DNA from: Spirochaetia bacterium
GTDB lineage: Bacteria > Spirochaetota > Spirochaetia > SZUA-6 > Bin103
Length of the DNA: 64,000 bases
Assembly (NCBI GenBank): GCA_965203905.1
Contig: CBDBDQ010000005.1
Location: 1,856,001-1,920,000, forward strand
Reading direction: 5' to 3'
The notes under the pieces were generated by a model. The model was not told the DNA's origin, searched no databases, and worked only from the letters and a program-made list of their open reading frames with translations. The first letter of the stretch is position 1. Each line of letters begins with the position of its first letter. Position numbers and translations under genes: made by a program. Shown in pieces: positions 7,438 through 20,677 of this stretch.

Positions 7438-8733
<1,296 letters not shown>

Positions 8734-8748
8734 CGCTCGGGCTCAGAC

Positions 8749-9300
8749 TCAGACGGTGGCCGGTGCCGGTTTCGGGCGGTCCAGGTGGATGAGGCTGCCG
8801 ACCGCTTCCGACTGGTGCTGGTACTTGCCGCGGTAGGGACGCTCGGTGCTGCGGTCCAGTTGCGCGAACACGATCTGACAGATGCGCCGCCCGGCGCGCA
8901 GCCGGATCGGCAGCCGGTTGGCGTTGAACAGCTCCAGCGTGAGGGTGCCGTCGAAGCCGGGGTCGACCCAGCCGGCGTTCTGAATGAACAGCCCGAGGCG
9001 CCCGATCGAGCTGCGACCCTCGACGAACGCGGTGATGTTGTCGGGCAGCCTGATCCGCTCGCGGGTGACGGCGAGCAGGAACGAGAGCGGGGGGATCACG
9101 ATCTCCTCGGTGCGCAACTCGACGTAGCGCAGCTCGGTATCCAGGGTGATGCGGTCGACGGCGTTCTCGTCCACCTTGAGGAAATGATCGCCTAACGTGA
9201 GGTCGATGGAGGCGGGCTGCGACTGATCCGGTTCCAGCGGCTCCACCACTACCGCGCCCTCGGCCATGAGCTGGCGCAGGGTCTCGTGGGAGACGATCAC
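8749..9300 (-). CDS. dcd: dCTP deaminase
   Basis: QPASIDL, EGRSSIGRLG, AGWVDPGF, ICQ, YRGKYQ; AGGAGG upstream of GTG. Confidence 0.93.
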   Translation of the reverse strand: MIVSHETLRQLMAEGAVVVEPLEPDQSQPASIDLTLGDHFLKVDENAVDRITLDTELRYVELRTEEIVIPPLSFLLAVTRERIRLPDNITAFVEGRSSIGRLGLFIQNAGWVDPGFDGTLTLELFNANRLPIRLRAGRRICQIVFAQLDRSTERPYRGKYQHQSEAVGSLIHLDRPKPAPATV

Positions 9301-9337
9301 GGCGGTGCGGACCTCCTTGCTGTGCCGGGATACGCGA

Positions 9338-9348
9338 TGGAGGTTAGG
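9338..9348 (-). repeat. Degenerate direct repeat of the tRNA-Ala 3' end (possible att site of block A)
   Basis: tggaggttagg vs tggaggatagg at 27765-27775 (10/11 identical, same orientation). Confidence 0.45.
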
Positions 9349-9384
9349 TCCAAAACTCTGACGTGTCAAACCGACTCTCCACCG

Positions 9385-9530
9385 GGTAGTGCGTTAGTTT
9401 GCTTTCAGTTTTCTACGGAGGCCCGTTTCTGGTAGGTCCGGGCGTACTGGACCGCTGGCGCCCGCTCGTCGATCAGCTCGACCAGCTGCTCCAGGCTCGC
9501 TGGCCGATCCGCCAGGTCGGCCGCATGCCC
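9385..9530 (-). mobile_element. IS1-family-like right-end remnant (terminal repeat plus transposase C-terminus)
   Basis: End ggtagtgcgttagtttg resembles 42924; peptide AADLADRPASLEQLVELIDERAP...YQKR resembles the tails of these transposases. Confidence 0.6.
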
Positions 9531-9639
9531 ACTTGTACCATCGCAGACGTATGTCTGGCAAGTGGCAGCGTGAGATATTTCTATTGGGGGTAATGGGTTG
9601 AGTGCAACCGAGAAATAAGGAACGTCTTCGACTCTGCTC

Positions 9640-9921
9640 TTAACCGGCCTTCTGCTCCAGGTCGGCAACGCGGCGCTCCAGCGCCGTCAAGCGCTCATCC
9701 GTCGTCACCCGCGCCGCCGCTTGCCCTTGTACTACCTCGAAGATTCGATCAACCTTCTCTGGTAGGTCGGCCAGCGCATCTACTTTCTCGGTCAGGACCT
9801 TCTGGCCGGCCTCCAAGCTGCCAACCTTCTCAATCAGAACCTTCTGGCCAGTCTCCAAGCTGCCGAGCCTATCCTCCATACCGCCGAGACGGCGGAGCAC
9901 CTCAGCCTCGAATTCGCTCAT
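9640..9921 (-). CDS. Small coiled-coil protein with a 14-aa internal duplication
   Basis: GSLETGQKVLIEKV/GSLEAGQKVLTEKV; heptad pattern. Confidence 0.7.
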   Translation of the reverse strand: MSEFEAEVLRRLGGMEDRLGSLETGQKVLIEKVGSLEAGQKVLTEKVDALADLPEKVDRIFEVVQGQAAARVTTDERLTALERRVADLEQKAG

Positions 9922-10061
9922 CTCAAACCCCCGATTATCATGTCTTCACCTTGACACATTTGGCCGTTGTTGTCGACACCAATCGGCTGGGGGTGCATTC
10001 CGGTATTGTGGCGCCAGCCGCCAGAGAGCACGCGCGGGATTGGATCGCGGCGAATGCACCC

Positions 10062-11161
10062 CTCGATGATGGCGCGCGCGGCGGGTAGGGCGGCAGGCGG
10101 CTCCTGGCCGGCTACCGGCGGTGCAGCCGCTTCCGGAAGTCGGCCTCGCTGACGCAGGCGGTGGCGGCCGCGACGATGGCGTGGCGGGGCAGTTCGGCGA
10201 AGCCGGGCACGCCGGGGAATCCGGGCGCGAGCACGATGCCGCGCGCCGCCAACAGCGCTCGTGCAAACTCGATGCGTTCTTCCGCGCGGCCTTCCGCGCG
10301 GCTGCGGCGGCGCTGCGCGCCCAGCAGGGGGTCGTCGTCCGGGCCGGTGCCCTCCCGCTCCCCGAGCGCCGCGCCCACCCGCTCCAGTACCGCGCTGGTC
10401 GCCACCGAAAGCGTCTCCTCGTTCAGCGCCGCGTGGATCTCCGCCGCCGTCCAGCCGGGAAACGCCCGGCTCTCCGCCACCTGCCGATACGCCCCATCCT
10501 CCAGCAGGTGGATGGTCAGTCCCGAGCGCCGGCTGCGCGGCCGGCTCGGCGCACCCACATCGGGCACCTCGATCCACACTTCCGGGAACCCCCACGCCTC
10601 GTACTGCGGCAGCTTGCGCCGGCGCGCGTCGGTGCTGTGGTCCACTTCCAGCACCACGTCCGGGAAGTCGTGCTCGCCAACCGTCAGCACCGGACGCGGC
10701 AACCGGGCGCGCGCCGGGTGCAGGTACACCGACTGGTCCGCCTGCATGATGAGGCGCGGCTCGCCGTGCGCGTCGCGCTCGGTGAGGTCGGTGCTGCCGA
10801 AGCACTCCACCGCCCCACCCCGCACCTGGGCGATGCGCTCGGCCAACGCGGTCAAGCCATGCGCGGGGCCTTCGTGCCAGGAGCTGACCGGATCGCAGAT
10901 CCAGGCGGTCTCGGAGACGCTGTCCCAGTATTCCAGCCGGATCTCGCAGTCGTCCAGTTCCTCGCGCGGCAGGCGCACCGGCTTGCAGCCGGGGAAGTCC
11001 GCCGCCGTGGGCGGCTGGACGCCGGGCGCCGGGTCCGCGGGCTGAGCCGTTCCCGGCGCCTCGACCGGCGCCTCGACCTGCGGACCGAGCGGGCGTACCG
11101 AAGCCATGCCGGCACGGTACGGCATTCCACCGGCCCGCTGCAACCGCGCGCTCGATGATGG
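10062..11161. mobile_element. Putative Uma2 gene cassette bounded by the 11-bp direct repeat CTCGATGATGG
   Basis: Repeat at 10062-10072 and 11151-11161; outer arms GAATGCACCC (10052) and GGGTGCATTC (11160); inner arms CGCGCG. Confidence 0.65.
10112..11107 (-). CDS. Uma2 (DUF820) family PD-(D/E)XK endonuclease with an Rpn-like C-terminal tail
   Basis: SSWHE, QADQSVY, PDVVLEVD, KLPQYEAWGFPEVW, SRAFPG; tail RAEGRAEERIEFARALL. Confidence 0.85.
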   Translation of the reverse strand: MASVRPLGPQVEAPVEAPGTAQPADPAPGVQPPTAADFPGCKPVRLPREELDDCEIRLEYWDSVSETAWICDPVSSWHEGPAHGLTALAERIAQVRGGAVECFGSTDLTERDAHGEPRLIMQADQSVYLHPARARLPRPVLTVGEHDFPDVVLEVDHSTDARRRKLPQYEAWGFPEVWIEVPDVGAPSRPRSRRSGLTIHLLEDGAYRQVAESRAFPGWTAAEIHAALNEETLSVATSAVLERVGAALGEREGTGPDDDPLLGAQRRRSRAEGRAEERIEFARALLAARGIVLAPGFPGVPGFAELPRHAIVAAATACVSEADFRKRLHRR

Positions 11162-11462
11162 GTGCATTCAAGTGAGTCACTACCTCCACCACGTCGGGTG
11201 GTCGAAGAGGATGGCCCGGCCGTGGCCGGCGGCGCACCCGGCTATGGAAAGGTGTTCGCAAGTGCGACAGTGGTGCCGCGTTCTGCGCCGACGCCGGTCG
11301 GCGATCGTTACCGTCTTTCCATGCAAGGAGATCCGGCGTTGCACGGGGAGCGCGGCGGGGCCGACTGTTGCGGAGTGCGACAGTTGGCCGATGCCGTTGC
11401 GAACCACTGCATCGTGCGTGAAGTGATGCCCCCGAAATGACTTGCGCTGCGGTTGCGGGTGC

Positions 11463-11479
11463 TTGGCATGGTTCCTGCT
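11463..11479 (+). promoter_or_regulatory. Sigma54 (-24/-12) promoter of the adhesin operon
   Basis: TTGGCATGGTTCCTGCT: GG-N10-GC, close to consensus TGGCAC-N5-TTGC. Confidence 0.7.
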
Positions 11480-11491
11480 TTACAAGTGGCC

Positions 11492-14400
11492 ATGCGAACT
11501 CTCACGGTCACTGGCGAAAGAACGGAACGATTGCGACTTGCGGTGCCGGCCGCCATCCTGCTTGCGCTGGCGGCGCTGCTCGGTGCGCCGCAGGGCGTGG
11601 CGGCCGAGTCACTGGACCCGGGAACGGTGGTGGCGGCGCAGGTCGAGGAGTCCGAGCCCGCGCCGGTGTTCGACGAGGGCGCCGCGGCAACTCGCCAGGT
11701 GGCCGAGAGCGCGAACGCCGGGGTCCACGTCGGTGGCCCGGTCACCGCTACCGCCGCCGATGACAACGACGCCGCGCTGACCTACTCGCTCAGCGGCGCC
11801 GCCGAGTTCACCATCGACGCGGCCAGCGGACAGATCAGGGTCGCCGGCGGTGCGGCGCTCGACTTCGAGACCAAATCCTCCTACCTGGTGACGGTGGGGG
11901 TCAGCGACGGCAAGGACGCCTCCGGCGACCCCGACGCCGCCATCGACGCCACCATCAGCGTCACCATCGCCGTGACCGACGTGGACGAGCCGCCGCCGGC
12001 GCCGGTCGCGCCTGCCGTGACCCGGCCGGCCAGCGCTCCCGAGACCTCGCTGGATGTGACCTGGACGGCGCCGGACACGACCGGCAGGCCGCCGCTCACC
12101 GACTACGACGTGCGCTATCGGGTGCCGGGCGAGGGCTGGAGCAGCGCGGTGCACGACGGCACCGCCACCACCACGACGCTCACCGGCCTGATCGCGAACA
12201 CCACCTACGAGGTGCAGGTGTCGGCTTCCAACGCCGAGGGCGGCGGCCCGTGGTCGGAGTCCGGATCGGGGACGACCGCGTTGGAGATACTGGAGCCGTC
12301 CCCGGTGTTCGACGAGGGGGACGTCGGTTCACTCCGCCAAGTGGCCGAGAACTCCGCCGCCGGGACCGCGGTGGGTCACCGCGTCACCGCTACCGATACC
12401 AACGACGCCATCCTGACCTACGCGCTCAGCGGGGCCGACGAGTTCACCATCGATGCGTCCAGCGGCCAGGTCAGGGTCGCCAGCGGCGCGGTGCTGGACT
12501 ACGAAGAAAAGGATTCCTACGTGGTGACGGTGAGCGTCAGCGACGGCAAGGACCAACACGGCTACCCCGACCCCGCCACGGACGACACCATCAGCTTCAC
12601 CATAGAGTTGATCGACGAGCTGGAGCCGCCGCCGGCGCTTGCGCTCCTCGTCGTGAGCGCGTCAGCCGCCAATCCCCAGACCTCGCTGGGGGTGGACTGG
12701 TCCGCTCCGGACATGACCGGTCGGCCGCCGCTCAGCGGATACGACGTGCGCTATCGGGTGCAGGGCAGCACCGGCTGGAGCCGCGCCGCGCACGACGGCA
12801 CCGCTACCACCGCGATGCTGGACGGCCTGACCGCGGGCACCACCTACGACGTGCAGGTAAAGGCGATCAACGACGAGGGCAGCAGCCCGTGGACGTCCGT
12901 CACCGCGACGACCGCGGCGGAGGTCACGGAACCGCAGTCGGCTCCGGTGTTCGACGAGGGGGCCGCGACGACGCGCCGGGTGGCCGAGAACACCCCCTGG
13001 GGGCACAGGGTAGGTGACCGCGTAACCGCCACAGACGCCGACGGCGACGCGCTCACCTACGCGCTCAGCGGAGCCGACCAGTTCACTATCGACGCGGCCA
13101 GCGGCCGGATCTACGTGGCGCGGGAGGTGGTGCTGGACTACGAGACGACCACCTCCTACACGGTGACGGTGAGCGTCAGCGACGGGAAGGACCTCGACGG
13201 CAACGCCGACGCCGCCACCGACGCCACCATCAGCGTCACCATCTACGTCACGGACCAAACGGAGAAGCCGCCCCAGCTTGACGGCCCAACGGTAAGTCCG
13301 CGGGCCGACGATGCGGAGACCTCTCTGGACGTGGCCTGGTCCGCTCCGGACATGACCGGCAAGCCGGCCATCACGCGCTACGACCTGCGTTATCGGCCGA
13401 AGACGCCCGACAACGGCTGGAGCACCGCCACGTACGACGACACCCGCACCAGCACCACCCTCACCGGCCTGATTCCGGGCACCACCTATCTGGTGCAGGT
13501 GCGGGCCACCAACGCCGACGGCAGCAGCGAATGGTCGGACCACGGCGAGGGGACGACCGCGGAGGCGAGCACGAACTCCGGGCCCACCAACGTGGAGCCG
13601 AAGTTTCTCGCTAACAATGCGCTACGCACGGTTGCCGAGAACTCCGGCGTGGGGACGGCGGTCGGTGAACCGATTGCCGCCACCGACGCCGACGCCGACA
13701 CGCTGACCTATTCGCTCTCCACGCCGCCCGACTCGAGGGACCCCATGTTTACCATCGACGCGGCCAGTGGCCAGATCAGAGTCGCCAGCGGCGCGGTGCT
13801 GAACTACGAAGACGCAGTCGCTCGCCGCCACAGCATGACGGTCTGGGTGACTGACGGCAAGAGCTCCACCGGCGGCGTCGATGCCAGCGGTGACGTCTCC
13901 ATCGCCGTCATGATCGACGTGTCCGACGAGTTGGAGCCACCGCCCACCCTTGCCGCGCCCTCCGTGACCCCCACCGCCAGCGCCCCCCAGACCTCACTGG
14001 ACGTAACCTGGGTCGCTCCGGACATGACCGGCAAGCCGTCGATCGACACCTTCGACGTGCGCTACCGGGTGCAGGGCCACGCCGCCTGGAGCACCATTTA
14101 CGCCAGCTTCCGGCTCATCGTCGGTGGCGCCGAAGGACAGTTGCGGACAGCAACGCTCGAAGACCTAATCGCGGGCACCACCTACGAAGTGGAGGTTCGG
14201 GCGACCAACGACGAGGGCACCAGCCCGTGGTCGGACGCCGGCACGGGGACCACGGCGGCGGAGGTCAGGGAGTCCAATCCGCCTCCGGTGTTCGACGAGG
14301 GCACCGCGGCATTCCGCCAGGTGGCGGAGGACTCCGGCTCCGGGAGCGCGGTCGGCGAGCCCGTCATCGCGACCGACTCCAACGACGACACGCTGGCCTA

Positions 14401-17400
14401 CTCCCTCGGCGGGGCCGACGAGTTCACGGTGGACGCGGACAGCGGCCAGATCCGGGTTGCCAGCGGCGTGGTGCTGGACTTCGAAGCGCAACCCTCCTAC
14501 ACGGTGACGTTGAGCGTCAGCGACGGGAAAGACCTCGACGGCGACTCCGACGCCACCGCGGACGCGACCATCAGCGTCACCATCGACCTGACCGACGTGA
14601 ACGAGCCGCCGCCGACACCGGCCGCGCCTTTCGTGACCACGCCGAGCAGCGGCGCGCAGACGTCGCTGGACGTGTTCTGGACCGCCCCGGACATGACCGG
14701 CAGGCCGCCGATCACCGACTACGAGGTGCGCTACCGGGTGCAGGGCTCCACCGGCTGGAGCGGCGGGGCGTACCGCGGCATCAGCACCAGCACCACGCTC
14801 ATCGGCCTGTTCGCGGGCGCCACCTACGAGGTGCAGGTACTGGCGAGCAACGCCGAGGGCAGCAGCCCGTGGTCGGCTTCCGGTACGCGGACGACGGTCG
14901 CGGCGCAACAGAAGTCGGGACCCAACGAGGCTCCGAGGTTCGATCAGGGCGCCTCGGTAGTCCGCAAGGTGGCCGAGAACGCCGCGGCCGGGACCGCGCT
15001 CGGTGCCGCCGTGACCGCCTTCGATCCCGACGGCGATACGCTGATCTACTCGCTCAGCGGTTCCGACCAGTTCACCATCTCGGCGGCCGGCGGCCAGATC
15101 AGCGTGGCGCCGGGCGCGGGGCTGGACTTCGAAGCCAACCCCTCCTACACGGTGACGGTGAGCGCCAGCGACGGCAGGGACGACGACGGCGGCGCCGACG
15201 CCACCGCGGACGCCCACGTCAGCGTCAGCATCGAGCTGATCGACGTGGCCGAGTTGCCCACCGCGCCCGCCGCCCCCGTCGTACGCAGGTCGGGCAGCGA
15301 TCCGGAGACCGCGCTGGACGTGAGCTGGGTGGCACCGGACATGAGCGGCAAGCCACCGATCACCGACTACGACGTGCGCTACCGGGCGCAGGGCAGCATC
15401 GGCTGGAGCAACGCCAACCACGACGGCCCCAACCGCAACATTACGCTCAAGGACCTGGCCGCGGGCACGCCCTACGAGGTGCAGGTGCTGGCCAGGAACG
15501 AAGACGGCAGCAGTCCGTGGTCGGCTTCCGGCAGGACGGCGCTCAAGGACTACGAGCCGGCTCCGGCGTTCGACGAGGGGGCCGCGGCAACCCGCCGGGT
15601 GACCGAGAACTCCCGCGCCGGGACCGCGGTCGGCGCGCCGGTCACCGCCACCGACGCCAACGACTCCGCGCTGACCTACTCGCTCAGCGGCGCCTTGGAC
15701 TTCGCCATCGACGCGACCGGCCAGATCAGGGTCGCCAGCGGCGCCGTGATGGACTACGAAGCGCAGCCCTCCTACACGGTGACGGTGAGCGTCAGCGACG
15801 GCAAGGACCGCACCGGCAAGGCCGAAGACGACCCCGCCACCGACGCCAGCATCAGCGTCACCATCGAGGTGCGCGACGTGGACGAGCCGCCGCCGGCGGT
15901 TGGCACGCCGGTCGTGACCAGGCCGGCCGGCTCCGAGACCTCGCTGGACGTAACCTGGACTGCACCGAACATGAGCGGCAAGCCGGAGATCACCGGCTAC
16001 GACGTGCAGTACCGGGAGTCCGACACGACGGCCTGGATGCCGCACGCGTTCAGCGGTACCGGTGTGGAAACCACGATCACGCGGCTCCAGGAGAGCACCC
16101 GCTACGAGGTGCAGGTGCGGGCCAGGAACGACGAGGGCATCGGCCGCTGGTCGCCCATCAAAGCGACGCGGCCGATGGTGCAGATCAGCGGCCCGAGCGA
16201 GACCCAGACGGGGCGCTTCGCGGTCCACTTCACGGTGATGCCGGAAGACGTGGCAGACTTCGATGGCGCAGACGTCGAAGTGACCAACGGCAGCGTGGAG
16301 TCGTTCGAGCACCTCGGAAGGGGGACCTACGTTGCCCGGATCAAGCCGGAGGCAACCGGCACCGTGAGCGTGCGGGTGCCCGCGGGCAGCTTCCACGGCG
16401 ACGGCAAGGCCAACCGGGAGTCGAGTCTGTACCAGGTGGAGGTGGAGGATTCCGTCCCTTCGGTCCCCGCCGAGGTGTCGTTCGCGCTCGAGGAGAACCG
16501 CGCCGGACCGGTAGTCCTGGGTGCGATCACGGACGGCACCCCGCAGGGTGTCGGTGGCTGGACTTACACGATCGCGAGCGGCGCGGCGGGCAAGTTCGAG
16601 ATCGAGGAGGCGACCGGGCGCTTGAGCTACGTAGGGGAGGGCGAGGACTACGAGACACCGCCGTCCAGCTACACCCTGACCGTAACCACGACCAGCGTCA
16701 GCGGCCGCACCGCGTCGACCGTGGTCATGGTCCACGTCGTGAACGTCAACGAACCTCCGCAACCGGTGGGAAAGATCGCGAACTGGGTGATGCACTCCGG
16801 CGCGTCGATCACGTTCAACTCGGAGCCGTACTTCGTGGATCCGGATGGGGATTCCCTCCAATATAAGGCGGACTCGTCCGACCCCGTGGTTGCCACGGTC
16901 CAGACCTCGAGCCCGCCGGTGACGATTACCGCCCAGGCAGAGGGCAGGACGATGGTTACCGTGACGACCTGCGATCCGGCCAACGAGTGCGCAACGCAGG
17001 AGATGGAGGTTCGGGTCCTGGAGGAGAACATCGATTTCATTCCGGACGAGTTGGAGGTAAAGGAGGGCGCGCAGGAGACCTACACCGTCAATCTGCTCGA
17101 CGTGCCGCCGGGCCGGGTGACGATCACCCTGACGAGCGCCGATCCCGGCGCGGCAACGGTCTCACCCGGGCAGTTGACCTTCAACCCGGACAACTGGGAC
17201 ACGGGGCAACCGGTTACCGTTGCGGGCGTGCCGGACGCCGACCATGTCGACGAGACGGTCACCGTCATCCACTCCGCGAGCGGCATGGGTTACCGGGGCA
17301 GCGCCGAGTTCACGGTCACGGTCATGGACGACGACGTAGCGGGCGTAAGGCTCGACCCGACCGCCGTCCGCATGGACGAAGGTGCGCAGCAGTCCTATGA

Positions 17401-20400
17401 GGTCAGCCTGCTCTCGGAGCCGCGGGACGAGGTGACGGTCACCCTGACGAGCCCCGATCCCAAGGCGGTGACGGTCTCACCGGAGCGGTTGATCTTCTAC
17501 TCCGGCAACTGGGACAGGCCGCAACGGGTGACCGTCACGGCCGTGCCGGACGCCGACCATGCCGACGAGACGGTCATCGTCACTCACACCGCACGCGAAA
17601 AAGATTACCAAGAAGAAGAAGAATACAAGGACGCCAAGCTCACGGTCACCGTGGAGGACGACGAGGTGGCAGGCGTGGTGCTGAGCAAGACCGAGGTGCG
17701 CATGCCGGAGGGTGCGCAGGCGTCCTACACCGTCAGTTTGCGCTCGGAGCCGCGGGCCGAGGTGACGGTCACCCTGACGAGTGCCGATACCAATGTGGTG
17801 ACGTTCTCGCCTGCGCAGTTGATCTTCAACCCCGACAACTGGGACACGCCGCAACGGGTGACTGTCACCGGCGTCCATGACGACGACATCGAGCCCGGGG
17901 AGGACCACATCACCCACACCGGACGCGAAAAGGATTACCAAGAAGATTACCAGGGCGCCGAGTTCACGGTCACGGTCGAAGACGACGACGAAGCGGGCGT
18001 AACGCTCAACCCGAGCGCCGTACGCACGGACGAAGGTGGGCAGGAGACGAGCGCCGTACGCACGGACGAAGGCGCGCAGGTGACCTACGCGGTCAGCCTG
18101 CTCTCGGAGCCGCGGGCCGAGGTGACGATCACCCTGACGAGCGCCGATCCCAAGGCAGCGACGGTTTCACCCCTGCAGTTGATCTTCAACCCGGACAACT
18201 GGAACACGCCGCAACTGGTTACCGTCGCGGGCGTGCCTGACGACGACCACGCCGACGAGACGGTCACCGTCATCCACTCCGCGAGCGGCCCGGGTTACCA
18301 GGCCAGCGCCGAGTTCACGGTCACGGTCGAAGACGACGACGTAGCGGGCGTAACGCTCGACCCGAGCGCGGTACGCACGGACGAAGGTGGGCAGGAGTCC
18401 TACACGGTCAGCCTGCTCACCGAGCCGCGGGCCGAGGTGACGGTCACCCTGACGAGCGCCGATCCCAAGGCGGCGACGGTTTCACCCATGCAGTTGAACT
18501 TCAACCGGGACAACTGGAACGCGCCGCAACTGGTTACCGTCACGGGCGTGCCTGACGACGACCATGCCGACGAGACGGTCATCGTCAGCCACACCGCACG
18601 CGGACCGGATTACCAGGGCAGCGCCGAGCTCACGGTCACCGTGGAGGACGACGAGGTGGCAGGCGCGGCGCTGAGCAGGACGGAGGTGCGCCTGGTGGAG
18701 GGCGCGCAGGCGTCCTACACCGTCAGTTTGCTCTCCCAGCCGCCGGGCGAGGTGACGGTTACCGTGACGAGTGCCGATATCAATGTAGTGACGGTCACAC
18801 CTGCGCAGTTGACCTTCTACCCCGGCAACTGGGATCTGCCGCAACGGGTGACTGCCGCCGGCGTCCCTGACGACGACGCCGAGGACGGGGAGGTCGACAT
18901 TACCCACACCGCAAGCGGCCCCGGTTACGACGGCGGCGCCGCGGCAACGGTCACCGCCAGCGTCGAGGACGACGACGAGAAAGGCGTCACCTTCACTCCA
19001 ACCGCGATACGTATCGGCGACGGCACGACGATGCGCGGCTATGGCGTGGTGCTGGACACGGTGCCCAGCGACCGGGTGACGATCGTGCCGGAGAGCGAGG
19101 ACCCCGGCACGCTGCGCGTGACGCCGGAGCGCCTTACCTTCACGCCGGACAACTGGAACCAGCGGCAGTACGTGACCATCACCAGCTCCGAGATCTTCGA
19201 GGACCAGACCGTCCGCGTGCTCCACCAGGTGAGCGGAGCGAACTACGAGGAGATCGCAGCCGCTGCCGTAACGGTCGCCGTGGTCGACGACGAGCGCGCG
19301 CAGCGCAGTCTCCTGGCCGAGCACTGGCTGGCGCGGTTCGGCCGCACCGTAGGCAGCCACGCGGTGGACAACGTGCGCGGGCGCGTCGCAGCGACGTCGG
19401 GCGAGGCGTACGTCACCCTGAACGGGCTCCGCCTGGGCGACCTGCCGAGCGCCGCGTCCGACGCCGCGCCGGCGCCGGTGAGCGTGGCCGGGCCCGCTCC
19501 GTCGCTGCAGCAACTGGCAGGCGCCAGCGCGTTTCAGGCCGAGGGGTTTCGGCCCGGCCTGGTGCTGTGGGGCCGCGGCGCATTCACCGACTTCGAGGAC
19601 CAGCCGACAGACGACCTGGCCCTCAACGGGGACGTGCTCTCGGGCCACCTGGGAGCGGACTACCGGTTCAACCGGCAGTGGCAGGCGGGCGTGGCCGTGT
19701 CCTACACCGGCGGCGCCGGCGACGTCGCCGACCGCGAAGCGTCTGCCGACGCCGACGTGACGTCGTGGCTGGTGAGCGGCTACCCTTACGTGCGCTTCTC
19801 ACCCCTGGACGAGCTGGCGGTCTGGCTTGCGTTGGGCCTGGGCTACGGCGAGATGGAGTTGGACGACGCTCCGAGGCCGGTGCGGCCGGAGATCGCGATG
19901 TACCTGGCAGCCGCGGGCATCGACAGCACGTTGTTGACGGTGCAGCACTTCCGGCTGGCGCTGAGCGCCGACGCCTTTGCCGTGCGCATGGAGTCGTCGG
20001 ACAGTGCGCCGGCGCTGCCGGCACTGAGCGTGGACGTGCAGAGCGTGCGGCTGCTGCTGGAGGGCCATGCCAAATTGGGACTTACGTCGGTCTCGCGGCT
20101 TGAGCCGAGCCTGGAGCTGGGCGCACGTTTCGACGGCAGTGATTCCGAGAACGGCATCGGCGGCGAAGTGGGAGGCGGTCTGGCCTACGTCAACACCGCA
20201 CTCGGCTTGAACGTGGAGGCCCGCGGCCGCTACCTGCTCATGCACCAGGAAAGCGCGCTTCACCAGTGGGGAGCCAGCCTGATGGTGAGCCTGGCACCCG
20301 GCGGGGGTGAGGGGTTGTCGCTGTCGCTGGCACCGGCCTGGGGCGTTGCGGCGAGCGGCGGGGACGCGGCGTTGCACGACGCCGGTCAGGTGGCCGCGTC

Positions 20401-20677
20401 AGACGCCGAAGAGCAGCTCCGTGGCCTGCAGCCGGACCAGATGGACTTGGCCGTGGGCTACGGCGTGAAGGTGGGCGACCGCGGCCTGCTGACGCCGTTC
20501 GGAGAGCTGGGCGTGGCGCGTGAGGCCACGCGGATGCGGGTGGGCCTGCGCCTGGGTGGTGCGGAGTCGCCGGCGGCCGAGGCACCGCTGGAGGTATACG
20601 TCGGACGGGACGCCACCACCCAGGACGCAGCCAACCCGGAGTACCACTTCGGGCTCAACGCATCGATCCGGGCCTGA
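11492..20677 (+). CDS. Giant surface adhesin: signal peptide, about 6 cadherin+FN3 pairs, Ig-like and Calx-beta-like repeats, C-terminal autotransporter-like beta-barrel
   Basis: Repeats PVFDEG..VAEN..LDFE..DVDEPP and W.APD..PPITDYDVRYR..YEVQV.A.N.EG..PWS; LTF.PDNW.TPQ.VTV..DDD repeats; WLARFGRT helix followed by a barrel; start uncertain. Confidence 0.9.
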   Translation: MRTLTVTGERTERLRLAVPAAILLALAALLGAPQGVAAESLDPGTVVAAQVEESEPAPVFDEGAAATRQVAESANAGVHVGGPVTATAADDNDAALTYSLSGAAEFTIDAASGQIRVAGGAALDFETKSSYLVTVGVSDGKDASGDPDAAIDATISVTIAVTDVDEPPPAPVAPAVTRPASAPETSLDVTWTAPDTTGRPPLTDYDVRYRVPGEGWSSAVHDGTATTTTLTGLIANTTYEVQVSASNAEGGGPWSESGSGTTALEILEPSPVFDEGDVGSLRQVAENSAAGTAVGHRVTATDTNDAILTYALSGADEFTIDASSGQVRVASGAVLDYEEKDSYVVTVSVSDGKDQHGYPDPATDDTISFTIELIDELEPPPALALLVVSASAANPQTSLGVDWSAPDMTGRPPLSGYDVRYRVQGSTGWSRAAHDGTATTAMLDGLTAGTTYDVQVKAINDEGSSPWTSVTATTAAEVTEPQSAPVFDEGAATTRRVAENTPWGHRVGDRVTATDADGDALTYALSGADQFTIDAASGRIYVAREVVLDYETTTSYTVTVSVSDGKDLDGNADAATDATISVTIYVTDQTEKPPQLDGPTVSPRADDAETSLDVAWSAPDMTGKPAITRYDLRYRPKTPDNGWSTATYDDTRTSTTLTGLIPGTTYLVQVRATNADGSSEWSDHGEGTTAEASTNSGPTNVEPKFLANNALRTVAENSGVGTAVGEPIAATDADADTLTYSLSTPPDSRDPMFTIDAASGQIRVASGAVLNYEDAVARRHSMTVWVTDGKSSTGGVDASGDVSIAVMIDVSDELEPPPTLAAPSVTPTASAPQTSLDVTWVAPDMTGKPSIDTFDVRYRVQGHAAWSTIYASFRLIVGGAEGQLRTATLEDLIAGTTYEVEVRATNDEGTSPWSDAGTGTTAAEVRESNPPPVFDEGTAAFRQVAEDSGSGSAVGEPVIATDSNDDTLAYSLGGADEFTVDADSGQIRVASGVVLDFEAQPSYTVTLSVSDGKDLDGDSDATADATISVTIDLTDVNEPPPTPAAPFVTTPSSGAQTSLDVFWTAPDMTGRPPITDYEVRYRVQGSTGWSGGAYRGISTSTTLIGLFAGATYEVQVLASNAEGSSPWSASGTRTTVAAQQKSGPNEAPRFDQGASVVRKVAENAAAGTALGAAVTAFDPDGDTLIYSLSGSDQFTISAAGGQISVAPGAGLDFEANPSYTVTVSASDGRDDDGGADATADAHVSVSIELIDVAELPTAPAAPVVRRSGSDPETALDVSWVAPDMSGKPPITDYDVRYRAQGSIGWSNANHDGPNRNITLKDLAAGTPYEVQVLARNEDGSSPWSASGRTALKDYEPAPAFDEGAAATRRVTENSRAGTAVGAPVTATDANDSALTYSLSGALDFAIDATGQIRVASGAVMDYEAQPSYTVTVSVSDGKDRTGKAEDDPATDASISVTIEVRDVDEPPPAVGTPVVTRPAGSETSLDVTWTAPNMSGKPEITGYDVQYRESDTTAWMPHAFSGTGVETTITRLQESTRYEVQVRARNDEGIGRWSPIKATRPMVQISGPSETQTGRFAVHFTVMPEDVADFDGADVEVTNGSVESFEHLGRGTYVARIKPEATGTVSVRVPAGSFHGDGKANRESSLYQVEVEDSVPSVPAEVSFALEENRAGPVVLGAITDGTPQGVGGWTYTIASGAAGKFEIEEATGRLSYVGEGEDYETPPSSYTLTVTTTSVSGRTASTVVMVHVVNVNEPPQPVGKIANWVMHSGASITFNSEPYFVDPDGDSLQYKADSSDPVVATVQTSSPPVTITAQAEGRTMVTVTTCDPANECATQEMEVRVLEENIDFIPDELEVKEGAQETYTVNLLDVPPGRVTITLTSADPGAATVSPGQLTFNPDNWDTGQPVTVAGVPDADHVDETVTVIHSASGMGYRGSAEFTVTVMDDDVAGVRLDPTAVRMDEGAQQSYEVSLLSEPRDEVTVTLTSPDPKAVTVSPERLIFYSGNWDRPQRVTVTAVPDADHADETVIVTHTAREKDYQEEEEYKDAKLTVTVEDDEVAGVVLSKTEVRMPEGAQASYTVSLRSEPRAEVTVTLTSADTNVVTFSPAQLIFNPDNWDTPQRVTVTGVHDDDIEPGEDHITHTGREKDYQEDYQGAEFTVTVEDDDEAGVTLNPSAVRTDEGGQETSAVRTDEGAQVTYAVSLLSEPRAEVTITLTSADPKAATVSPLQLIFNPDNWNTPQLVTVAGVPDDDHADETVTVIHSASGPGYQASAEFTVTVEDDDVAGVTLDPSAVRTDEGGQESYTVSLLTEPRAEVTVTLTSADPKAATVSPMQLNFNRDNWNAPQLVTVTGVPDDDHADETVIVSHTARGPDYQGSAELTVTVEDDEVAGAALSRTEVRLVEGAQASYTVSLLSQPPGEVTVTVTSADINVVTVTPAQLTFYPGNWDLPQRVTAAGVPDDDAEDGEVDITHTASGPGYDGGAAATVTASVEDDDEKGVTFTPTAIRIGDGTTMRGYGVVLDTVPSDRVTIVPESEDPGTLRVTPERLTFTPDNWNQRQYVTITSSEIFEDQTVRVLHQVSGANYEEIAAAAVTVAVVDDERAQRSLLAEHWLARFGRTVGSHAVDNVRGRVAATSGEAYVTLNGLRLGDLPSAASDAAPAPVSVAGPAPSLQQLAGASAFQAEGFRPGLVLWGRGAFTDFEDQPTDDLALNGDVLSGHLGADYRFNRQWQAGVAVSYTGGAGDVADREASADADVTSWLVSGYPYVRFSPLDELAVWLALGLGYGEMELDDAPRPVRPEIAMYLAAAGIDSTLLTVQHFRLALSADAFAVRMESSDSAPALPALSVDVQSVRLLLEGHAKLGLTSVSRLEPSLELGARFDGSDSENGIGGEVGGGLAYVNTALGLNVEARGRYLLMHQESALHQWGASLMVSLAPGGGEGLSLSLAPAWGVAASGGDAALHDAGQVAASDAEEQLRGLQPDQMDLAVGYGVKVGDRGLLTPFGELGVAREATRMRVGLRLGGAESPAAEAPLEVYVGRDATTQDAANPEYHFGLNASIRA

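Follow-up and report, generated by a model that had tools for sequence, protein, structure and literature searches.

The analysed stretch of DNA, a window of 64,000 nucleotides, lies in the genome of a Spirochaetia bacterium (G000), where it corresponds to C5:1856001-1920000. It contains a 1.09-kb unit with one Uma2-family gene, bracketed by the arms GAATGCACCC and GGGTGCATTC and by an 11-bp direct repeat, CTCGATGATGG. In a first-pass annotation this unit had been described as a nuclease-gene cassette integrated into a palindromic target. All sequence features claimed for it were found where that annotation had placed them, and analysis of open reading frames and a Pfam search (PF05685) confirmed the Uma2 homologue as the only gene inside the unit. 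The symmetry claimed for the predicted circle junction was also present, but it is trivial, since (CG)n is self-complementary. The features of the locus, in window coordinates, are as follows.

9971..9976, minus strand: -35-like hexamer TCGACA, upstream of the small ORF at 9640-9921 and 14 bp beyond the left MITE's outer tip
9991..10061: left MITE, internally deleted to 71 bp, both ends present
9991-10000: GGGTGCATTC, the "third arm" of the first-pass annotation
9991-10011: promoter-seeking end of the left MITE, GGGTGCATTCCGGTATTGTGG, tip at 9991, fitting GGGTGCATTC-N6-TGTGG
10052-10061: GAATGCACCC arm of the left junction, the last 10 bp of the other end of the left MITE, tip at 10061
10062-10072, plus strand: direct repeat CTCGATGATGG, left copy, abutting the MITE tip
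10062-10070: most likely 9-bp target duplication, left copy, the first 9 bp of CTCGATGATGG
10073-10078: CGCGCG on the inner side of the left repeat
10073..10111, minus strand: 3' flank of Uma2, about 40 bp past the stop, conserved in 5/5 copies of the unit and partly in the G018 copy (another genus)
10112..11107, minus strand: Uma2-family (PD-(D/E)XK-like) gene, 331 aa, Pfam PF05685, conserved ATG at 11107
11114..11143, minus strand: putative Uma2 promoter, -35 TTGCAG (11143-11138), 18-bp spacer, -10 TACCGT (11119-11114), 6 bp to the ATG
11145-11150: CGCGCG on the inner side of the right repeat
11151-11161, plus strand: direct repeat CTCGATGATGG, right copy, overlapping the GGGTGCATTC arm
11151-11159: most likely 9-bp target duplication, right copy, CTCGATGAT, which recurs beside the other MITE end on the left
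11160-11169: GGGTGCATTC, the right arm, all that is left of the right MITE, a 10-bp stub of its promoter-seeking end
11162-11169: GTGCATTC, directly after the right repeat

The Uma2 product is a putative PD-(D/E)XK-like nuclease, as judged from its sequence. The open frame extends beyond the conserved start codon to an ATG at 11167 inside the arm, and the resulting 351-aa ORF matched PF05685 with 26.4 bits (E 5.6e-6; cut-off 27). In a six-frame search of the genome, the window gene reached 28.3 bits (cut-off 27) and the sister copies 24.2-29.5 bits. Searching the PDB sequences revealed 9y1l_A as the sole related structure, with a weak match (E 0.28); matches to polyubiquitin (3 bits each) were discarded as repeat artefacts. 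The frame is intact in all five copies of the unit, with a pairwise dN/dS of 0.24-0.83, and a 12-bp repeat within the gene, encoding AEGR or AEGH, varies in number among them. The promoter upstream of the gene is predicted, from conservation alone, to be leaderless. The pattern TTGNNN-N18-TANNNT-N6-ATG was retained in all ten Uma2 paralogues examined (three genomes), despite their differing flanks. A consensus scan for promoters and terminators called nothing within 9600-11500, and the Uma2 promoter lies below its thresholds.

The exact arm GAATGCACCC was found three times in the window (0.19 expected) and the repeat CTCGATGATGG twice (0.03 expected), numbers that were reached in none of 100 shuffles in either case. 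An exact repeat of at least 11 bp between two 900-bp flanks is ordinary in this genome, being present at 618 of 1000 random positions. The CTCGATGATGG repeat is meaningful because of its position: it lies exactly at the edge of the homology between the copies of the unit, abuts the arms and is retained in four further copies.

In the whole genome of G000, the exact GAATGCACCC occurs 38 times. Only one side of these occurrences is conserved, as ...CCAC-N7-GAATGCACCC, whereas the other side varies from copy to copy, and such one-sided conservation is the signature of a mobile-element tip. The end pattern GGGTGCATTC-N6-TGTGG was present at 44 places when mismatches were allowed, and pairs of tips were found to bound three kinds of elements: MITEs of 97-228 bp, elements of 1.5 kb and composites of 2.2-8.1 kb. 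The full insertion sequence (IS), located at C5:2122481-2124038 (1,558 bp), contains a 468-aa ORF whose product matched the ISKra4 transposase model NF033572 of NCBIfam with 239.6 bits (cut-off 205); the copy in the relative G004 scored 230.3 bits. A 225-bp MITE matches both ends of this full IS, and the MITE subfamily flanking Uma2 has only the ends of about 21 bp in common with it. The IS had at first been named ISAzo13, a name that was rejected because the ISAzo13-family transposase gene sits in a second IS nested inside a MITE. The same IS ends were detected in five congener genomes, with 47, 16, 7, 7 and 3 matches. The GAATGCACCC and GGGTGCATTC arms, previously taken for a palindromic, REP-like target, are the outermost 10 bp of the inverted repeats at the ends of an ISKra4-family IS and of its MITEs. 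Likewise, the "third arm" and the left arm, which had been paired as members of a REP-like repeat family, are the two ends of one 71-bp MITE remnant. Stand-alone palindromes of the REP/BIME type were rejected as an identity for the arms, since the 10-mers form the tips of longer elements, which range from 71 to 1,558 bp and have target duplications.

The outermost pairs of IS ends in G000 are flanked by target duplications, which are perfect over 8-9 bp in six of eight pairs and imperfect in the other two. Perfect 9-bp duplications were observed in the relatives (6/6 pairs in G004 and 2/2 in G001). No consensus that would indicate a preference for the repeat sequence was visible among the 14 duplications seen in G000 and its relatives. 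A few repeat-like flanks were found in G008, in a search that was biased towards such flanks. At five IS ends, the adjoining 8-11 bp are repeated in tandem.

Members of the ISKra4 group are described as inserting upstream of sigma-A promoters, with 13-17 bp between the -35 region and the junction of inverted repeat and genome (Guerillot et al., 2014, PMC3942029, as far as the sections consulted extend). The ends in G000 showed the same habit. When 25 ends were read outward from the tips, six had TTG at an offset of exactly 16 (binomial P = 8.6e-8, using the TTG frequency of the genome), as did three of four copies taken from G004 and G001, and the TTG always belongs to the same type of IS end. 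At several further ends, a hexamer resembling a -35 lies at 13-18 bp or, where the duplication has one additional tandem copy, at 16 bp plus the length of that copy. The Uma2 unit conforms to this spacing, the -35 of Uma2 lying at offset 16 from the MITE tip in the window copy (W) and in copies B and C. Reading in the window from the right tip toward Uma2, the order is ATCATCGAG, CGCGCGG, TTGCAG, N18, TACCGT, N6, ATG, which gives 9 + 7 = 16 bp from the right MITE tip to the -35. With the -35 at this offset, the 9 bp at the tip (CTCGATGAT on the plus strand) occupy the place where the target duplication of the IS is expected.

The CTCGATGATGG repeat is therefore best read as the target duplication of the IS. 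A target-site duplication had been among the explanations offered at first; as such it most likely stands, but the duplication, 9 bp long and 16 bp upstream of the -35 of Uma2, is that of the IS and not of a Uma2 cassette. Over 9991-10058 the window shares 97% identity with the first 68 bp of copy B's left MITE, and in a contig of run X22 a full MITE end, ...CCACACAGAAAGAATGCACCC, abuts the left repeat at the same junction. At the right stub, copies B and C run on with CGGTATTG(G)TGG..., which is the same MITE end, whereas the window showed no MITE likeness after 11169. The repeat is 11 bp long, two more than the 9 bp of the IS family, which counts against a composite transposon; the surplus GG is attributed to overlap with the right MITE tip, which begins with these two bases. 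The TCGACA hexamer outside the left MITE weakly fits the family habit of insertion 13-17 bp upstream of a -35, its -10 being poor. No outer target duplication of copy W was found.

The unit is dispersed in G000 as five copies with 93-98% identity (W, A, B, C and D). Copy B (C5:1243292-1244795) is complete, in the order MITE, repeat, Uma2, repeat, MITE. Its outer 9-bp duplication is CCGCTCGCT, and a TTGACG lies 16 bp from its outer promoter-seeking end. The two MITEs of this copy are in direct orientation and about 8% substitutions apart. Copy B moved as one composite transposon. Copies A, C and W resemble B with deletions in one or both MITEs, and copy W, with only 10 bp left of its right MITE, is a truncated fossil of such a transposon. 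Copy D (C5:6032852-6033978) differs from the others: it carries CTCGATGATG on both sides and sits in the space that separates an SDR gene from a PhyH gene, which in six congeners is variable, measures 65-720 bp and lacks the unit. Copy D is the earliest-branching copy (dS of 0.11-0.135 to the others vs 0.035-0.085 among them). No significant MITE remnants were found beside copy C (left), copy D or copy W (right); a short stretch in the left flank of copy C (GGATC-CGGC) resembles the interior of the MITE, which is suggestive only. When the flanks of copy D were compared with decayed neighbouring Uma2 units, the resemblance was weak, with P = 0.03 for the right flank and P = 0.41 for the left. 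By inspection, the hexamers CTTGGC and CTCGGC lie just outside its two repeats. The five dispersed copies, one of them inside a complete element with its own target duplication, support the view that the unit belongs, or once belonged, to a mobile element, as had been proposed for a single-gene mobile unit, but its vehicle is the IS.

Among the 35 Uma2 matches in G000, only four have arms within 1.5 kb, and all four belong to the Uma2 subfamily of the window. The flanks of all Uma2 paralogues, which had been expected to show similar junctions, thus lack arms within this distance in the other 31 matches, and the more distant paralogues also lack the left repeat. Nothing links the movement to the Uma2 nuclease itself, which had been suggested as one possible agent. 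No close-type Uma2 unit was found in ten congeners. The sister genus contains many Uma2 genes of the close type in head-to-tail arrays, with up to 19 matches per genome; these have no arms and only one repeat-like sequence. Tandem arrays of the window's own subfamily were found in four sister-genus genomes. In G018 (genus g2), two copies lose homology to the unit at or near repeat-like sequence.

Taken together, we regard it as probable that the region is a decayed composite transposon with two MITE arms derived from an ISKra4-family IS and with Uma2 as its passenger. The Uma2 unit is probably not a self-moving cassette. After the left repeat comes the 3' flank of a Uma2 gene, which means that the DNA lying upstream of the targeted promoter at first belonged to another Uma2 unit, as its end. 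From this we infer that the target of the MITE was a tandem Uma2 pair or a unit-length circle. One MITE would have inserted upstream of the promoter of a Uma2 unit lying directly downstream of another, either in a tandem pair, a setting common in relatives, or in a circle. Unequal crossing-over between units, or an equivalent duplication, would then have produced the arrangement MITE-Uma2-MITE, and the transposase encoded by the full IS (C5:2122481-2124038) may have moved this arrangement in trans. Later deletions would have stripped most of both MITEs in the window, and copy W is probably no longer mobile. The Uma2 protein would take no part in this movement. A search for a tandem pair of the exact unit, or for a MITE between two Uma2 genes, found none in G000 and the other 23 genomes of the family. 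Further points count against the composite transposon. The repeats of copy D would need either two spacers of an old array or an exact loss of the MITEs, the ends of homology in G018 are also predicted by a unit with defined ends, the consensus scan did not call the Uma2 promoter, and copy W showed no outer target duplication.

Copy D, with the repeat on both sides and without a MITE, is unexplained and keeps a small chance of an intrinsic Uma2 cassette. According to this alternative, which we judge improbable, the unit is a discrete cassette whose ends are set by CTCGATGATG(G), acting either as an att-like core for a recombinase working in trans or as a cut site of Uma2; the cassette would have entered, among other sites, a junction of abutted IS ends and later been spread by the IS. 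Copy D argues for it in several respects, since it lies in an intergenic site that is free of MITEs and lacks the unit in six congeners, has the repeat on either side, branches first and is flanked by the CTTGGC and CTCGGC hexamers; the two G018 copies whose homology stops at repeat-like sequence point the same way. It remains, however, the single MITE-free example. No other Uma2 paralogue has such junctions, and no recombinase gene was found in or next to the unit by ORF analysis or profile search. Moreover, the position of the repeat is exactly the one predicted by a 9-bp duplication and the 16-bp promoter rule, which would otherwise be a coincidence.

The intermediates that such a cassette would leave were also not found. 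Neither the predicted empty site nor the circle junction occurs in G000, and their motifs gave no matches in viral contigs. In the contigs of four public runs no such joints were found over 8700-11900, and contigs cannot show rare forms; one "between" string in these contigs proved to be the right junction of copy B and not a circle. No pair of abutted arms within 20 bp was present in the 24 genomes of the family. In a metagenome scan with the left-junction pattern, none of the 120 sequences among the matches listed was homologous to the unit, so that these are chance matches, and a scan of a genome collection with the right-junction pattern returned ten stretches, none with the unit. It is likewise doubtful that a one-gene Uma2 cassette has its genuine end, or its site of recombination, in the 10-11-bp repeat and leaves tandem arrays as a unit-length piece to re-enter the chromosome, as at copy D, with one such cassette captured by the promoter-seeking IS. 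If true, this would be the first mobility mechanism for the hugely expanded Uma2 family.

A further unlikely course of events is that a tandem dimer or circle junction of the MITE attacked a 9-bp site on a circular, unit-length Uma2 released from an array, placing the circle between two MITEs in one step. From the known behaviour of IS dimers, such an attack would yield exactly MITE, repeat, Uma2, repeat, MITE. The five ends with tandem copies of their 8-11-bp flanks suggest repeated insertion at one promoter site followed by loss of one copy, and the divergence of about 8% between the MITEs of copy B is similar to the dS between Uma2 copies. On the other hand, neither abutted ends (24 genomes) nor a circle was found, and the parts of PMC3942029 that were consulted gave no transposition chemistry for ISKra4 elements. 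Finally, that the junctions are chance repeats or a REP-like palindrome family unrelated to transposition is extremely improbable, for although 11-bp repeats between 900-bp flanks are common, the arm 10-mer is far over-represented locally, the arms belong to ends of at least 21 bp with a cognate transposase and target duplications, and the junctions are conserved in four copies.

The probable composite transposon was compared with known systems. Integron and dif-module cassettes are alike in being single-gene units, roughly 1 kb in size, that have a short repeat at each border; here, however, no attC-like or dif-like (11-6-11) site was seen by eye, no integrase gene is nearby, and both borders consist of IS tips. 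Two copies of an IS or a MITE also bound the composite transposons of the Tn10/Tn5 type and the MITE-bounded integron units of Acinetobacter. The arrangement described here shares with them two short elements in direct orientation around a passenger and one outer target duplication (copy B), and differs in that the inner junctions also have a 9-bp direct repeat. This inner repeat points away from two independent insertions and towards a single one, into a target that was tandem or circular, with a duplication afterwards.

The element that carries the Uma2 unit is of a known kind, namely a promoter-seeking IS of the ISKra4 type together with its MITEs. The ISKra4 group, which is Mutator-like (p-MULT 4), agrees with it in the transposase model, in inverted repeats and in direct repeats at the insertion sites, as well as in a fixed orientation and a fixed short distance to a sigma-70-type -35 (published 13-17, here 16), as described in the sections of PMC3942029 consulted. 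Some published members carry extra genes, according to the same sections, whereas here the passenger Uma2 lies between two MITEs and not within one element beside the transposase. Uma2 genes (COG4636, PF05685) are described as forming cassettes of paralogues and have been proposed to be solo toxins (Makarova et al., 2009, PMC2701414, in the portions consulted). The family in G000 is the same and is similarly expanded (35 matches), with head-to-tail arrangement in relatives; those portions of PMC2701414 describe no mobility vehicle, whereas here one subfamily rides on an IS-derived composite. Within the literature on Uma2 and ISKra4 that was seen, which was in part only excerpts, no report links Uma2 genes to an IS vehicle.

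The assignment of the arms to the IS removes an apparent new mobility mechanism, as IS ends abutting a passenger gene mimic a palindromic integration site. With tips 16 bp from the -35, the locus cleanly illustrates in a natural setting the rule by which ISKra4-type elements target promoters, and it shows how such an element can make a tandemly repeated gene into a MITE-bounded composite transposon. For annotation, 9991-10061 and 11160-11169 are to be labelled as IS/MITE remnants.

The same IS family in G000 also carries copies of a highly expanded HNH-nuclease gene, which suggests one way in which selfish nuclease genes multiply.

Terminal inverted repeats (tips) of ISKra4-family insertion sequences (IS) and of their MITEs were examined on contig C5 of the source genome. 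At five of these tips the 8-11 bp adjoining the IS tip was found doubled in tandem:

C5:1215068, IS tip with tandem flank repeat
C5:2210289, IS tip with tandem flank repeat
C5:2338993, IS tip with tandem flank repeat
C5:6311917, IS tip with tandem flank repeat
C5:5330654, IS tip with tandem flank repeat

Where such a tip was followed by a -35 hexamer, the hexamer stood at offset 23, 25 or 27, counted outward from the tip, which equals 16 bp plus the length of one repeat. The tandem repeats look as if the promoter site had received another insertion, which was later lost exactly.

The ISKra4 family also forms six composites in the source genome, in which a MITE is followed by a gene for a 459-aa HNH endonuclease, after which comes what remains of the 3' part of an ISKra4 copy, including the end of that copy:

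C5:4835789-4838013, HNH composite
C5:3696708-3699172, HNH composite
C5:5227230-5229446, HNH composite
C5:6513240-6515721, HNH composite
C5:2335206-2338993, HNH composite
C5:6311917-6320055, HNH composite

Perfect target duplications of 8-9 bp were present in four of the six, and imperfect ones in the other two. This genome carries a hugely expanded family of HNH genes, with about 60 matches by tblastn. At C5:2335206-2336751, a 225-bp ISKra4-type MITE holds a nested ISAzo13-family IS encoding a 406-aa transposase (NF033519, 594.5 bits), with a 4-bp overlap between the two MITE halves at the insertion point.

In the Uma2 unit, a single-gene segment of about 1.1 kb, the stretch coding for the C-terminal region of the protein contains a 12-bp repeat (AEGR/AEGH; 10280-10300 in the window and the matching positions of copies A-D), and at this repeat the five copies differ by 0, 12 or 36 bp. 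Variants common to several copies show patchy gene conversion among the five. By eye, the borders of the unit do not look like a dif site. Related genomes contain head-to-tail arrays of many diverged paralogues from the same Uma2 subfamily (78-90% identity, spaced about 1.1-1.5 kb apart), which carry conserved spacers of their own:

G020:C1:72001-92000 (L024), Uma2 array
G018 (L026), Uma2 array
G023 (L027), Uma2 array
G022 (L028), Uma2 array

The intergenic space between the SDR and PhyH genes, orthologous to the site of copy D, is an insertion hot spot: in G003 (L030, C251) two genes have been inserted there, over about 0.7 kb, and in G008 (L032, C191) the space contains a MITE that shares the GGGTGCATTC end.

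YhgA/Rpn-like (Transposase_31) genes adjoin ISKra4-related elements at three places:

C5:1213800-1213876, YhgA/Rpn-like gene left of copy A
C5:1245316-1246260, YhgA/Rpn-like gene
C5:5330250-5330450, YhgA/Rpn-like gene

The Pfam search covered the gene near copy B, and the one left of copy A was assigned by eye because it resembles the 5330-kb gene. Copy A appears to truncate the gene on its left after ...CVPQPLAA. In the window, a giant-adhesin-like ORF of 3,074 aa with many repeated domains (11453-20677) starts 280 bp rightward of the right MITE stub.
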